From the UHGV virus genome UHGV-1508137: a DNA stretch of 28,536 nucleotides. The stretch is one strand, 5' to 3'. The position numbers and the translations under genes are program-made. The stretch comes from a virus. The notes under the pieces are model-generated. The model had not been told where the DNA came from, made no database searches, and saw only the letters and a list, made by a program, of their open reading frames with translations. Shown here piece by piece: positions 1,500 through 20,795 of the stretch. The first letter of the stretch is position 1. Each line of letters opens with the position of its first letter.

Positions 1500-1700
1500 C
1501 TATCTGCGCCCACAGCATCCAGTGGTCATAGCAGTCGCTGATGTTCTCGGCTTCGATAACTCTGTTGAATGGTTCTCCATTCCATTCACCTGTGACTCGG
1601 AAGTGCATTTATCATCTCCATAAAACAAAACCCGCCGTAGCGAGTTCAGATAAAAGAAATCCTCGTCAGTGCGAGGATGCTGTTCATTGCTGCTATACAC
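1500..1700 (-). CDS. hypothetical small protein (66 codons, GTG start)
   Basis: Open frame only; start codon is GTG with a gagag motif upstream; no recognisable motif. Weak call. Confidence 0.3.
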   Translation of the reverse strand: MYSSNEQHPRTDEDFFYLNSLRRVLFYGDDKCTSESQVNGMENHSTELSKPRTSATAMTTGCCGRR

Positions 1701-1850
1701 TTTTTTGCTCTCAACGTAAGCGGTAGCCCATTCTGTTGGGTTGGTGCAGTTGCTTTTAGGAAATGCTATTTACCCCTTAAATGTCGGCTGAAAGAGCTAA
1801 AATCCATGCAAAAAATTTACGCAATTTTGTGTATTATTGTGCAGTAAGTA

Positions 1851-2453
1851 ATGAGCTATTTTCTGCGCAAAAAATGGATGGTAAATTTGTCCGGGTCAGG
1901 AAAAATTTTATGGGCGCTAAACATGAAAAAAGATTCGTATCCTTATTTGATTTGCATGACAGTTTCAGGGCTGATCTTTATTTTCCTTTTCTTCTGGTGG
2001 CGGGCAGATATCTACAGGGTCACGTTTCTTAATCAGAGTATATCCCACTATTACATTCTGTTTAGCATGGGAATAGCTTTTCTGTTATCTCTGTTTTGGG
2101 TTAAGAAGGGGATAGTAAAACAAAGCGGCTGGAAGAGTCTGTCAGCATACCTTAAGGTTTATGCAGGGATGTGCATATTTGCTGGATTTTTTCTGATTAT
2201 ACCCCTTACGACACTAACTTATTTTTTGCCTGGAGAGACATCGTCTTATGTTGCACCGTATCGGTATACTTCCGGTAGTTCAAAAAGTTGTTCTGGAGCT
2301 GAGGTGGATGACCCCGATCTACATGAGAATATTCGCATTTGCTATCCGTATGGCAATTATGAGTACGATAATATTATCTATGTTGAAAAGAAAATTAATA
2401 TATTAGGTGCGGTAGTGACATATGCACAGACCGCGCGTGATGATACTGAATGA
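1851..2453 (+). CDS. hypothetical integral membrane protein, 200 aa (alternative starts at 1878 or 1923), 3 predicted TM helices plus ~80-aa C-terminal soluble region
   Basis: ORF on the strand opposite to int/xis/exo; visibly AT-rich; hydrophobic segments LICMTVSGLIFIFLFFWW, YYILFSMGIAFLLSLFWV, VYAGMCIFAGFFLIIPLTTL. Confidence 0.6.
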   Translation: MSYFLRKKWMVNLSGSGKILWALNMKKDSYPYLICMTVSGLIFIFLFFWWRADIYRVTFLNQSISHYYILFSMGIAFLLSLFWVKKGIVKQSGWKSLSAYLKVYAGMCIFAGFFLIIPLTTLTYFLPGETSSYVAPYRYTSGSSKSCSGAEVDDPDLHENIRICYPYGNYEYDNIIYVEKKINILGAVVTYAQTARDDTE

Positions 2454-2663: not shown

Positions 2664-2885
2664 TCACTTCGAACCTCTCTGTTTACTGATAAGCTCCAGA
2701 TCTTCCTGGCAACTTGCACAAGTCCGACAACCCTGAACGACTAGGTGTCTTCGTTCATCTATCGGATCGCCACACTCACAACAATGAGTGGCAGATATAG
2801 CCTGGTGGTTCAGGCGGCGCATTTTTATTGCTGTGTTGCGCTGTAATTCTTCAATTTCTGATGCTGAATCAATGATGTCTGCCAT
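2664..2885 (-). CDS. TraR/DksA-family C4 zinc-finger protein, 73 aa (same family and size as the TraR-like Orf73 reported for lambda)
   Basis: C-x2-C-x17-C-x2-C motif (CCECGDPIDERRHLVVQGCRTCASC), size and position in early-left operon. Confidence 0.8.
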   Translation of the reverse strand: MADIIDSASEIEELQRNTAIKMRRLNHQAISATHCCECGDPIDERRHLVVQGCRTCASCQEDLELISKQRGSK

Positions 2886-2934
2886 CTTCCATTAATCCCT
2901 GAATTGTTGGTTAATACGCTTGAGGGTGAATGCG

Positions 2935-2961
2935 AATAATAAAAAAGGAGCCTGTAGCTCC
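2935..2961 (-). terminator. intrinsic terminator-like hairpin (ggagc/gctcc) followed on the minus strand by ttttttatt
   Basis: Inverted repeat plus U-tract read on the minus strand between two early-left ORFs. Confidence 0.45.
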
Positions 2962-5602: not shown

Positions 5603-5735
5603 TCTTTGGGACTCCTGGCTGATTAAGTATGTCGATAAGGCGTTTCCATCCGTCACGTAATTTACGGGTGATTCGTTCAAGTAAAGATTCGGAAGGGCAG
5701 CCAGCAACAGGCCACCCTGCAATGGCATATTGCAT
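5571..5735 (-). CDS. cIII: CIII (FtsH/HflB inhibitor), 54 aa
   Basis: Hand translation of minus strand: [54 protein letters not shown]; overlaps kil by 32 nt as in lambda. Not in ORF track (below its length cut-off). Confidence 0.9.
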   Translation of the reverse strand: MQYAIAGWPVAGCPSESLLERITRKLRDGWKRLIDILNQPGVPKNGSNTYGYPD

Positions 5736-5807
5736 GGTGTGCTCCTTATTTATACATAACGAAAAACGCCTCGAGTGAAGCGTTATTGGTATGCGGTAAC
5801 GCCGCGC

Positions 5808-17154: not shown

Positions 17155-17651
17155 TGCCTCCATCATTACGAAAAGCCGTTGCTGCTGCTATTGGTGGCGG
17201 AGCAATTGCTATAGCATCAGTGTTAATTACTGGCCCAAGTGGTAACGATGGTCTGGAAGGTGTCAGCTACATACCATACAAAGATATTGTTGGTGTATGG
17301 ACTGTATGTCACGGGCATACAGGAAAAGACATCATGCTCGGTAAAACGTATACCAAAGCAGAATGCAAAGCCCTCCTGAATAAAGACCTTGCCACGGTCG
17401 CCAGACAAATTAACCCGTACATCAAAGTCGATATACCGGAAACAATGCGCGGCGCTCTTTACTCATTCGTTTACAACGTGGGTGCTGGCAATTTCAGAAC
17501 ATCGACGCTTCTTCGCAAAATAAACCAGGGCGATATCAAAGGCGCATGTGATCAGCTACGTCGCTGGACATATGCTGGCGGTAAGCAATGGAAAGGTCTC
17601 ATGACTCGTCGTGAGATTGAGCGTGAAATCTGTTTGTGGGGTCAGCAATGA
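17154..17651 (+). CDS. R: SAR endolysin (T4-lysozyme-like muramidase, phage 21 R type), 165 aa
   Basis: N-terminal signal-anchor-release segment [18 protein letters not shown]; E...D...T catalytic spacing ([17 protein letters not shown]); TAATG overlap with holin. Confidence 0.9.
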
Positions 17652-18085
17652 ACAGAGTAACCGCGATTATCTCCGCTCTGGTTATCTGCATCATCGTCTG
17701 CCTGTCATGGGCTGTTAATCATTACCGTGATAACGCCATGACCTACAAAGAACAGCGCGACAAAGCTACATCCATCATCGCTGACATGCAGAAGCGTCAA
17801 CGTGACGTAGCAGAACTCGATGCCAGATATACAAAGGAGCTTGCTGATGCTAACGCGACTATCGAAAGTCTCCGTGATGATGTTTCTGCTGGGCGTAAGC
17901 GGCTGCAAGTCGCCGCCTCCTGTGCAAAGTCAAAGACCGGAGCCAGCAGCATGGGCGATGGAGAAAGCCCAAGACTTACAGCAGATGCTGAACTCAATTA
18001 TTACCGTCTCCGAAGTGGAATCGACAGGATAACCGCGCAGGTTAACTACCTGCAGGAGTACATCAGGACGCAATGTCTGAAATAA
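17648..18085 (+). CDS. Rz: Rz i-spanin, 145 aa
   Basis: N-terminal TM helix [16 protein letters not shown] then coiled-coil periplasmic domain; ATGA overlap with R. Confidence 0.85.
17847..18032 (+). CDS. Rz1: Rz1 o-spanin lipoprotein, 61 aa, embedded in the +1 frame of Rz
   Basis: Signal peptide with lipobox GVSGC, proline-rich mature region [12 protein letters not shown]; wholly inside Rz. Confidence 0.8.
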
Positions 18086-18116
18086 TTTTTTTGCAAATCA
18101 CAAAGTCCATTTAATG

Positions 18117-18174
18117 AGCCTCGCGATGCGGGGCTTTTTTGCAATAAATGCGTACCGCAACGCATGTTTTTTTT
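18117..18174 (+). terminator. two tandem intrinsic terminators after Rz (18117-18141 and 18148-18174)
   Basis: agcctcgcgatgcggggct + tttttt; atgcgt-accgca-acgcat + gtttttttt. Confidence 0.7.
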
Positions 18175-18289
18175 ACACCGAACCTGCCCCTTTGGAATGG
18201 GCCTTTGAGGATACCAGTTAGTGCTGGCGAGCCTCGGTGGGCTGGTTTCCTGTGCGGCAAAGGTTCATTTCAAATGGTAGGTAAACGTT

Positions 18290-18811
18290 ATGAATATCGT
18301 GCCACTTAATTACAAAGGTGAAATTGTCAGTTTCAACACTGATGGTTGGATCAACGTCACAGGTGTTGCTGAGAGATTTGGGAAACGCATTGATAACTGG
18401 ATGCGTTTGGCAGAAACGCTTGAATACGTTCGTGCTTTAGACGAAGCGTTGACCGGGAAAGAATCTCAAATTTTACATCCCTCACAATCGAGGTATGTAA
18501 AAACCAGCAAGGCACGAAAGGACAGGGGTGGTGGTACGTGGCTACATCCAAAACTTTCAGTTGCATTTGCCCGTTGGTGTGATGCTCGTTTTGCTGTGTG
18601 GTGCGACCTGCACATTGATAGTCTGCTTCGCGGTGAACTGACTGAGCAGCAGAAATATGAGCAAGCATGTCGCATTCGCGATGACCGGAAATCAAAAGCC
18701 AGCCATGGGGCAAGAGAGATGGCTCGCTGGCGATGGGATAAGCCGGTTATTGAAGCAAATGTTGAGTACTGGCGCGAGCAACTGCAGTTGACTCTCGATA
18801 TCGCGTGCTGA
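18290..18811 (+). CDS. KilA-N domain protein, 173 aa
   Basis: N-terminal region (FNTDGWINVTGVAERFGKRIDNWMRLAETLEYV) fits the KilA-N/APSES-like fold pattern; good RBS ggtaggtaaa. Confidence 0.7.
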   Translation: MNIVPLNYKGEIVSFNTDGWINVTGVAERFGKRIDNWMRLAETLEYVRALDEALTGKESQILHPSQSRYVKTSKARKDRGGGTWLHPKLSVAFARWCDARFAVWCDLHIDSLLRGELTEQQKYEQACRIRDDRKSKASHGAREMARWRWDKPVIEANVEYWREQLQLTLDIAC

Positions 18812-19160
18812 TGGCAAACGCAAAACTGCGTTATCGAAAAAATCAAAGCATTACTAGAACTGAGCAACGGCTATCCATTACAAAGCCCATCTACGGGTGG
18901 GCTTGATAATGGCTTATACCCTGCACGGGATAACTTAACTGATATCCCTTTTAACGGATAAAGGCATTCAAGCCTGACACATCATGCGCTGTATCGTCGC
19001 CGTATTCCCGTATTAACAGAGACCGTAGCCCGACGGGGAACTCCTTCTGCGCGAGTGTGCGGGAATAATCAAAAACGATGCACACCGGGGTTACCGGGTA
19101 CACATATTTCATCATGCCAGCGAGTCCGGTTCTGGCACGGAAGAAACCGGACGTTATGAT

Positions 19161-19571
19161 TTAGTGCGGAAATATTTGTGTAGTGTTCTGAATGTTCTCA
19201 GTAAAGAGTAATGAATTATCAAAGGTATAGTAATACCTTTTGTTTTCGTGGATATTTGTAATCCATCTGAAAACCCCTGCTGTAGCAAGATTTTTCCTGT
19301 ATTCGTAAAATGATAACTCTCCTGATTTGAATCCTTTTAAGGTGGCTTCTATAAGGCATTTATTTTTTGAAAATCTTACATTTACAACCTTACCCTGTCC
19401 TTTTATTAAAACCGTATTATCGTTTTCAAGAACAAGATGAATATTCTCTGTAGCTAAATAGTAAATGTAATGTGAGACATTGTGACGTTTTAGTTCAGAA
19501 TAAAACCAGTGATAGTTTAAATTATTTCGCACTTTATCGAATATTTGTTTAAAAATGGCAACCTGAGCCAT
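19161..19571 (-). CDS. hypothetical protein, 136 aa from Met-6 (141 from first ATG); resembles DLP12 YbcV (DUF1398) by size and context
   Basis: AT-rich ORF; GGAAGG RBS precedes the second ATG; family assignment from memory only. Confidence 0.6.
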
Positions 19572-19627
19572 TGTAGTACCTTCCATGTGATATGAGGGGC
19601 GTAGTCTGCACGATTATCTAAATTGCT

Positions 19628-19861
19628 TCAATCTGGTCTGATCTGTTTTCTGAGCAATTCAGTAATGTCACTCTTTTCTTTGTTTGCTTCAGGAGAAACT
19701 CTTTTTTCTGAGCACAGTCTCCGGCGGCAGGCTTCAATGACCCAGGCTGAGAAATTCCCGGACCCTTTTTGATCAAGAGCGATGTTAATTTGTTCAATCA
19801 TTTGGTTAGGAAAGCGGATGTTGCGGATTGTTGTTCTGCGGGTTCTGTTCTTCGTTGACAT
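19628..19861 (-). CDS. ribbon-helix-helix (Arc/MetJ/CopG-like) DNA-binding protein, 77 aa
   Basis: N-terminal basic strand TTIRNIRFP followed by two helices separated by a G-x-S/N turn (QKGSGNFSAWVIEACRRRL). Confidence 0.6.
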   Translation of the reverse strand: MSTKNRTRRTTIRNIRFPNQMIEQINIALDQKGSGNFSAWVIEACRRRLCSEKRVSPEANKEKSDITELLRKQIRPD

Positions 19862-20019
19862 GAGGTTGTCCCGTATTTAGTGTCGCTGATTTGTATTGTC
19901 TGAAGTTGTTTTTACGTTAAGTTGATGCAGATCAATTAATATGATACCTGCGTCATAATTGATTATTTGACGTGGTTTGATGGCGTAGATGCACGTTGTG
20001 ACATGCAGATGATAATTAT

Positions 20020-20250
20020 TATCATTTTGCGGGTCCTTTCCGGCGATCCGACAGGTTACGGGGCGGCGACCTCGCGGGTTTTCGCTATTTATGAAAATTT
20101 TCCGGTTTAAGGCGTTTCCGTTCTTCTTCGTCGTAACTTAATGTTTCTATTTAAAATACCCCCTAAAAAGAAAGGAAACGACAGGTGCTGAAAACGAACT
20201 TTTGGGCCTTTGTCGTTTCCTTTCTCTGTTTTTGGCCGTGGAATGAACAA
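20020..20250 (+). other. cos: cos region: cosN with 12-nt cohesive end gggcggcgacct at 20061-20072, cosB (terminase/IHF sites) downstream
   Basis: ...acaggttacg|gggcggcgacctcgcgggttttcgctatttatgaaaattttccggtttaaggcgtttccgttcttcttcg matches lambda cos. Confidence 0.9.
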
Positions 20251-20769
20251 TGGAAGTCAACAAAAAGCAGCTGGCTGACATTTTCGGTGCGAGTATCCGT
20301 ACCATTCAGAACTGGCAGGAACAGGGAATGCCCGTTCTGCGAGGCGGTGGCAAGGGTAATGAGGTGCTTTATGACTCTGCCGCCGTTATAAAATGGTATG
20401 CCGAAAGGGATGCTGAAATTGAGAACGAAAAGCTGCGCCGGGAGGTTGAAGAACTGCGCCAGGCCAGCGAGGCAGATCTCCAGCCAGGGACTATTGAGTA
20501 CGAACGCCATCGACTTACGCGTGCGCAGGCCGACGCACAGGAACTGAAGAATGCCAGAGACTCAGCTGAAGTGGTGGAAACCGCATTCTGTACTTTCGTG
20601 CTGTCGCGGATCGCAGGTGAAATTGCCAGTATTCTCGACGGGATCCCCCTGTCGGTGCAGCGGCGTTTTCCGGAACTGGAAAACCGACATGTTGATTTCC
20701 TGAAACGGGATATCATCAAAGCCATGAACAAAGCAGCCGCGCTGGATGAACTGATACCGGGGTTGCTGA

Positions 20770-20795
<26 letters not shown>
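20250..20795 (+). CDS. nu1: terminase small subunit Nu1, 181 aa
   Basis: MEVNKKQLADIFGASIRTIQNWQEQGMPVLRGGGKGNEVLYDSAAVIKWYAERDAEIENEKLRREVEEL... matches lambda Nu1. Confidence 0.97.

Follow-up and report, generated by a model that had tools for sequence, protein, structure and literature searches.

Accessory genes between the lysis cassette and cos of a lambda-like Escherichia coli phage: KilA-N, DUF1398 and YlcI/YnfO

The window analysed here is the whole 28,536-nucleotide stretch of the virus genome UHGV-1508137, and all coordinates count from its first letter. It belongs to a lambda-like E. coli phage or prophage. We studied the region that lies between the spanin gene Rz upstream and the terminase genes Nu1 and A downstream. 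An initial annotation, made from the letters alone, had described three open reading frames in this region, and the frame listing confirms them at 18290-18811, 19161-19586 and 19628-19861. With the start codon that we prefer for the second frame (see below), the genes are as follows.

17636 to 18085, plus strand: Rz spanin gene (Pfam Phage_lysis, E = 9e-36), context
18290 to 18811, plus strand: KilA-N / ORF11CD3 gene, 173 amino acids, in lambda's bor slot
19161 to 19571, minus strand: DUF1398 gene (YdfO/YbcV/lambdap78 family), 136 amino acids, AT-rich
19628 to 19861, minus strand: YlcI/YnfO (DUF3950) gene, 77 amino acids, candidate ribbon-helix-helix protein
20250 to 20795, plus strand: Nu1 small terminase gene (Pfam Phage_Nu1, E = 9e-101), context

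The labels KilA-N and DUF1398-like of the initial annotation are borne out by Pfam. The KilA-N domain (PF04383) covers residues 7-114 of the first protein (E = 8e-22, 77.5 bits against a gathering cut-off of 23.8), and DUF1398 (PF07166) is matched at E = 3e-43. The third protein matches DUF3950 (PF13132; E = 5e-21, 74.7 bits, cut-off 25) as well as the YlcI/YnfO family NF041551 of NCBIfam (35.7 bits, cut-off 30). Over 18090 to 20250 the window and the right end of Escherichia phage ev099 share 99.9% identity. The full 2.16-kb arrangement of this segment is found in 66 of 5426 complete E. coli genomes as prophage copies of 99.5-99.8% identity, and partial matches occur in 4903 of these genomes (about 90%). 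As the gene families are already named and so widespread, and are present in lambda as well, the discovery value of the region is small.

We suggest, with a probability of roughly 0.6, that the region is a mosaic segment of accessory genes ("morons"), which in this lambda-like genome occupies the right end from the lysis cassette to cos and is composed of three separable genes. These are known, widespread accessory genes which are functionally uncharacterised, and lambda itself has two of the three. The identities of the genes, their homology to lambda, Qin and DLP12 and their independence of one another are established directly.

For lambda we used the sequence contained in the DE3 record. 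The alignment with lambda runs from 18985 to beyond Nu1, with 82% nucleotide identity over DUF1398 and 95% from the 5′ half of ylcI through cos. The part unrelated to lambda is thus limited to about 17908-18984 and comprises the 3′ part of Rz, two terminators, the KilA-N gene and its flank; of Rz only the 5′ part is lambda-like (17648-17907, 78% identity). With respect to cos and Nu1, DUF1398 and YlcI are ordered and oriented in lambda as they are in the window, and cosQ and cosN are identical in the two. Lambda differs in having bor in place of KilA-N, a YlcI of 64 instead of 77 amino acids and a 68-amino-acid gene (ybcW/lambdap79) on the opposite strand between DUF1398 and ylcI. The DUF1398/YlcI pair is therefore not foreign to lambda. 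The description of the whole region as non-lambda cargo holds for KilA-N, which indeed sits in the bor slot, but not for the pair, both members of which are carried by lambda, DLP12 and Qin.

Lambda's GenBank-derived records obscure this relationship. The lambda ylcI/ynfO homologue (DE3 record 2742-2936, minus strand) is unannotated there and in the HK629 record. The lambda DUF1398 gene (DE3 record 1675-2208, minus strand) is lambdap78, a "putative envelope protein"; it is over-extended to 177 amino acids from a GTG lying 41 codons upstream of the conserved 136-amino-acid start.

Among the K-12 prophages Qin has the same adjacent layout as the window, nohA-ynfO (77 amino acids)-57 bp-ydfO (136 amino acids), although Qin is decayed and the DNA past ydfO carries gnsB and cold-shock genes. 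DLP12 has the same families beside a Nu1-type gene in the lambda-type order borD-ybcV-ybcW-ylcI-nohD. In this comparison, which the initial annotation had proposed, DLP12 differs from the window in having bor and in ybcW, which splits the pair. Phage ev099 (Radostvirus) does not differ from the window; its gp69-gp72 are annotated as KilA-N, a 54-amino-acid open reading frame, DUF1398 (labelled "head protein") and YlcI/YnfO. PhiR49_1 has another KilA-N allele plus an extra 85-amino-acid frame. The Shiga toxin (Stx) phages 2851 and JLK-2012 are arranged as Rz-KilA-...-YlcI-HNH-TerS-TerL. They share with the window the KilA-N gene, here directly 3′ of Rz, and a YlcI gene divergent from the packaging genes, but they have no DUF1398 gene, another terminase type and other DNA upstream of ylcI. 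In the Stx type, ylcI lies 41 bp from the divergent HNH endonuclease gene that precedes TerS-TerL.

How firmly do DUF1398 and YlcI belong together? In the 80 IMG/VR loci closest to the 77-amino-acid YnfO type the pair is intact in 79, and Nu1 lies upstream and divergent wherever the contig extends that far. The KilA-N gene is present in only 14 of these 80 relatives. The single exception to the pairing (L035, 438-1454) has an IS5 transposase directly after ynfO and has lost everything from DUF1398 through Rz; here ynfO now abuts the endolysin gene. Outside this clade the pair separates in both directions. We searched one genome per species for DUF1398 using a 5-sequence alignment, a 13-sequence alignment being too divergent, and found about 35 diverged loci with 24-53% identity. 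They comprise the YcgX type in Escherichia and Shigella and loci in Citrobacter, Klebsiella, Kluyvera, Pseudocitrobacter, Raoultella, Salmonella diarizonae and Epilithonimonas. No homologue of YlcI, Nu1 or Rz lies within 3 kb of any of them, and the 45 open reading frames flanking 27 of them belong to heterogeneous chromosomal families, with no ribbon-helix-helix family among them. The ycgX gene of K-12, for example, adjoins bluR. One prophage contig has intact DUF1398 and ybcW without ylcI. Conversely, DUF1398 is present in none of 80 Stx-type ylcI loci of IMG/VR, and tblastn found nothing at E < 1 in phages 2851 and JLK-2012. Since the pair separates both ways, the constant neighbour of ylcI is the first packaging gene and not DUF1398.

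The small protein itself had been called a 77-amino-acid ribbon-helix-helix (RHH) DNA-binding protein. The gene is where it was described and belongs to the YlcI/YnfO family; the fold is merely plausible. Residues 1-50 hardly vary in the lambda/Qin/DLP12-type set, and in the Stx type they are substituted at only a few positions; the C-terminal tails differ between subtypes. An AlphaFold2 model of the monomer, of low confidence (predicted local distance difference test 64), has helices at residues 19-32 and 34-52, preceded by a basic N-terminus that is unstructured. The predicted succession of a strand and two helices is that of RHH regulators and antitoxins such as Arc, Mnt, CopG, ParD, RelB and MazE6. 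YlcI/YnfO differs from these proteins in having neither a significant sequence or structure match nor an evident partner toxin. Searches of PDB sequences with YnfO, as a single sequence and as an 18-sequence profile, gave nothing relevant, a Pfam scan at E values up to 10 gave no RHH family, and hhalign gave nothing against CopG and placed IRNIRFPNQMIEQ on QFNLRWPREVLDL of Arc with negligible probability. Many of the weak structural matches to the YnfO model are RHH proteins, mostly antitoxins (MazE6, ParD, RelB, TacA). As RHH antitoxins dominate the small RHH entries of the PDB, these matches are not specific for an antitoxin function. The literature mentions ylcI mutations, which carry no functional information.

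We suggest that the segment could work in the following way. The KilA-N protein, a putative DNA-binding protein, would be encoded on the strand of the late transcript and be produced only through read-through of Q-modified polymerase coming from pR′. YlcI/YnfO, a small, probably RHH and putatively DNA-binding protein, would be expressed from the spacer next to cos by leftward transcription opposing the late transcript, and might regulate transcription in this direction at the boundary between accessory and packaging genes. DUF1398 would be an AT-rich optional passenger, sited downstream of ylcI where it is present. DNA binding, the timing of expression and a regulation of DUF1398 by YlcI are points that we infer. 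The cos-proximal DNA has the following features.

19931 to 19963, unstranded: inverted repeat ATCAATTA-N17-TAATTGAT, arms 19931-19938 and 19956-19963, the candidate operator of the initial annotation
20009 to 20025, unstranded: near-perfect 17-bp palindrome ATGATAAT-T-ATTATCAT, just left of cosQ
20031 to 20037, plus strand: cosQ (GGGTCCT), identical to lambda
20061 to 20072, plus strand: cosN cohesive end GGGCGGCGACCT, identical in lambda, DLP12 and Qin

The window has a cos of the lambda type: the 12-nucleotide cohesive end and its surroundings are identical to lambda, Nu1 adjoins, and the DE3 record has its cos site annotated at the place equivalent to 20061-20072. CosN lies 200 bp past the ylcI start. 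We take GGGTCCT at 20031-20037 to be cosQ, equivalent to lambda 48473-48479. This assignment reportedly goes back to work by Wieczorek and Feiss in 2001.

An imperfect inverted repeat had been noted upstream of the RHH gene at 19925-19960. A repeat does exist there, at 19931-19963, but its arms are perfect over only 8 bp, and when the 199-bp spacer is resampled with a Markov model, such a repeat turns up by chance in about 6% of cases. Lambda, DLP12, Qin, PhiR49_1 and the window do not vary from the ylcI start up to about 19984, which leaves some 75 bp before cosN, and nearer to cos the variation is minor. As the repeat lies in a wholly invariant block, its conservation says nothing specific about it. 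The DNA upstream of the Stx-type ylcI is unrelated to that of the window despite the nearly identical N-terminal region of the protein, and only chance 7-8-mers are common to the lambda-type and Stx-type upstream DNA, so the repeat has no counterpart there. Thus, nothing specific speaks for this repeat as an operator.

Three points weigh against the view of a segment of separable genes with YlcI as a leftward regulator. First, the DNA upstream of ylcI gave no convincing sigma-70 promoter on the minus strand, and the best candidates agree at 8 of 12 positions. Second, the conserved DNA between ylcI and cos could reflect the function of cos rather than regulation. Third, the two genes are adjacent in every close 77-amino-acid YnfO relative, which allows a functional link within this subtype, for example via the subtype-specific tail. 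The pair may likewise be a loose arrangement of a small regulator with an optional passenger.

Such a link would be realized if the genes formed a regulator-effector operon of the Qin/ev099 type, in which YnfO autoregulates ynfO-ydfO from a cos-proximal promoter and operator and DUF1398 is the specific output. The genes are on the same strand and adjacent with no terminator between them, the 77-amino-acid tail variant always lies directly beside DUF1398, and the spacer holds two 8-bp inverted repeats. The invariance of the spacer, however, is not confined to the repeat, and the N-terminal region of YlcI is nearly unchanged in phages which lack DUF1398 and have unrelated upstream DNA. Moreover, the DLP12 counterpart ybcV is under PdhR-dependent control (PMC7660256). 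We therefore regard such an operon as rather unlikely.

A different emphasis is obtained if YlcI/YnfO is taken as the conserved element and DUF1398 as one interchangeable passenger. YlcI/YnfO would then be a conserved RHH regulator tied to the boundary of the lysis/accessory genes with the packaging genes, acting on antisense transcription across cos/pac or on the expression of accessory genes in the prophage state. YlcI is found at this place beside each of two unrelated terminase systems, Nu1-cos and HNH-TerS. We consider it tentative and would not bet on it. The fixed place beside the packaging genes of two phage lineages is nevertheless a mildly interesting residue of the analysis, and the protein is a cheap experimental target because its position is constant and no function is known even in the best-studied phage.

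The same position could be explained more directly by packaging, in that YlcI/YnfO binds by cos/pac or shields the packaging operon from opposing transcription, with DUF1398 being unrelated. YlcI is always divergent and beside the first packaging gene of the two unrelated terminase types (Nu1 and HNH-TerS), and conservation from the 5′ end of ylcI through cos far exceeds that of the genes nearby. Yet the position may simply be a favoured slot for the insertion of accessory genes, and the DNA binding of YlcI is only putative. Packaging of lambda needs only about 200 bp of cos in cis, terminase and integration host factor, and nothing from Rz to cos is known as essential to it; both points weigh against such a role, which we regard as improbable.

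The initial annotation had seen in the small RHH gene and the following gene the classic layout of a type II toxin-antitoxin or regulator-effector module. As a toxin-antitoxin pair, the RHH antitoxin YnfO would neutralise the toxin DUF1398 and repress the operon via the upstream repeat. What invites this reading is a small RHH-like gene upstream of a gene for about 130 amino acids on the same strand, adjacent to it in all 79 intact close relatives, together with the predominance of RHH antitoxins among the weak structural matches to the YnfO model. In addition, ydfO was scored "essential only by TraDIS" (transposon-directed insertion site sequencing; PMC5821084), though this merely means few transposon insertions. 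In the 30%-GC ydfO the scarcity of insertions could stem from protection or silencing of the region, or from reads that map to multiple copies, and not from true essentiality. In every test made here the toxin-antitoxin reading fails. The genes do not co-occur as a type II pair would: the roughly 35 diverged DUF1398 loci and one prophage have no YlcI or RHH neighbour, hundreds of YlcI loci in Stx phages have no DUF1398, and in lambda and DLP12 ybcW lies between the two genes on the opposite strand. Nor do they form a tight operon, as the 56-bp gap has its own Shine-Dalgarno sequence and hence the genes are not translationally coupled. DUF1398 neither belongs to nor folds like a known toxin family, and YdfO was made alone for the nuclear magnetic resonance structure 2HH8, which would argue against strong toxicity. 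We found no experiment in the literature on a toxicity of DUF1398 and its neutralisation by YlcI. With separable genes, a 56-bp gap and no match to a toxin family, the toxin-antitoxin layout is not supported, and we hold this function to be very improbable. A small RHH gene followed by a gene of no known function is thus an unreliable signature of toxin-antitoxin pairs.

It is just as improbable that the segment is prophage-expressed cargo for anti-phage defence or superinfection exclusion: the position is typical of accessory genes, the DNA is AT-rich and KilA-N has a weak PADLOC match to the candidate PDC-S22 (E = 1e-5), but DUF1398 and YlcI have no credible match in PADLOC-DB 2.0 (DUF1398 to Csx23 merely at E = 0.02) and no link to defence was found in the literature.

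Coming back to the segment of three separable genes, the KilA-N gene is a common occupant of the slot after the lysis genes. Its allele is shared at 99.4% identity by ev099, HK544 and Salmonella phage Emek, and related genes lie near the right genome end of HK97 (gp73), HK022 and other lambdoid phages. The proteins of HK97, HK022 and phage D3 (orf11) are 44-47% identical in the KilA-N domain; with HK97 and HK022 the alignment is limited to the first 117 residues and the C-terminal part is not common. In the window this part is ORF11CD3-like (PF10549), a domain that it probably shares with D3 orf11, to which the protein aligns over its full length with 44% identity; the Pfam score of 16.5 bits for the domain lies under the cut-off of 25. 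Of the PHROG families, 518 supports the domain with a match to residues 118-170 (E = 1e-8), and 129 is matched too. The gene is flanked by two further features.

18116 to 18175, plus strand: two tandem hairpins with T-runs resembling intrinsic terminators (terminator scan, RNA fold), in the Rz/KilA-N interval
18951 to 19115, minus strand: "orf54" block, homologous to the DNA upstream of lambda bor (Pbor), probably non-coding

The tandem terminators are canonical and sit within the expected late transcript. They would shield KilA-N and the downstream DNA from polymerase that is not antiterminated. As they precede the gene and no sigma-70-like promoter was detected for it on the plus strand, KilA-N would be made only by Q-antiterminated read-through.

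On the other side of KilA-N the replacement of bor stops within the DNA that carries the bor promoter in lambda. The two hexamers of this lambda promoter (TGGACA-N15-TACAAT, as annotated in HK629) have decayed in the window. An open reading frame of 53-54 amino acids is annotated at this place in ev099 and PhiR49_1. We reject it as a gene: it belongs to no family, start and stop are not conserved, and with no bias for the third codon position and with non-triplet gaps the substitutions are not of the coding type. For these reasons the block is probably a non-coding remnant. In both lambda-type and Stx-type phages a block of about 160 bp is kept in the interval from ylcI to Rz, whether or not DUF1398 is present, the Stx-type copies being the stretches L159 2974-3111 and L160 3362-3517. 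Lambda's copy holds the bor promoter.

The DUF1398 protein is a member of the family (PF07166; YdfO/YbcV/YcgX) by profile and by the YdfO fold, and is 76% identical to E. coli YdfO (PDB 2HH8). The open reading frame can be read as 141 amino acids at 19161-19586 or as 136 amino acids from the ATG at 19571. The latter start has a GGAAGG Shine-Dalgarno sequence 7 nucleotides upstream and is the one annotated by RefSeq. The gap to ylcI/ynfO is therefore 56 bp; the 41 bp given in the initial annotation belong to the 141-amino-acid reading. The gene was rightly described as AT-rich, with a GC content of 30-32% against about 50% in the flanks. Two features lie at its ends.

19124 to 19152, unstranded: hairpin GTCCGGTT-N13-AACCGGAC, 8 nucleotides past the DUF1398 stop
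19630 to 19647, unstranded: PdhR-box-like sequence AATCTGGTCTGATCTGTT, at the 3′ end of ylcI/ynfO and about 60 bp 5′ of the DUF1398 start

The hairpin, which had also been noted before, is conserved: lambda and DLP12 have it, and so does Qin, where one base pair is compensatory. On the minus strand, that of the DUF1398 gene, it lacks a U-tract, and its folding energy is ordinary within the window (z = -1.15). The sequence at 19630-19647 resembles the PdhR site of DLP12. There the counterpart ATCTGGTCTGACCTCTT upstream of ybcV is bound by PdhR, and ybcV mRNA is 10-fold lower in a pdhR mutant (PMC7660256). By analogy this suggests that DUF1398 has its own PdhR-responsive promoter.

We found no paper that assigns a function to YlcI/YnfO or DUF1398, and DUF1398 has no match, by sequence or fold, to a known toxin or defence family. 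Lambdap78 is dispensable in lambda (PMC10695390), whose lytic growth does not require it. Resistance to oxidative stress upon overexpression of YdfO has been stated (PMC4077768); we set this aside, as the cited work of Wang et al. 2010 (PMC3105296) reports on YfdO of CPS-53 instead, and the statement looks like a mix-up of gene names.

Some minor observations remain. The palindrome at 20009-20025, 5 bp to the left of cosQ, is similar to a Fur box (GATAATNATTATC); the corresponding lambda sequence is GATAATCATTATC. No known small RNA was matched in the region by Rfam at gathering or permissive thresholds. Lambda right-end DNA, in contigs of about 3.5 kb or as whole 48-kb genomes, is found in assemblies of Kitasatospora, Brevibacillus, Flavobacterium, Pedobacter, Arcanobacterium (as a "plasmid") and others; lambda DNA in such unrelated taxa is almost certainly contamination from sequencing controls, and these matches were discarded. 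Far from the region, at 5690-5748 on the minus strand, the window holds the lambda cIII thermoregulator element (Rfam RF01804, 88.5 bits), and thus a lambda-like early left operon is present.

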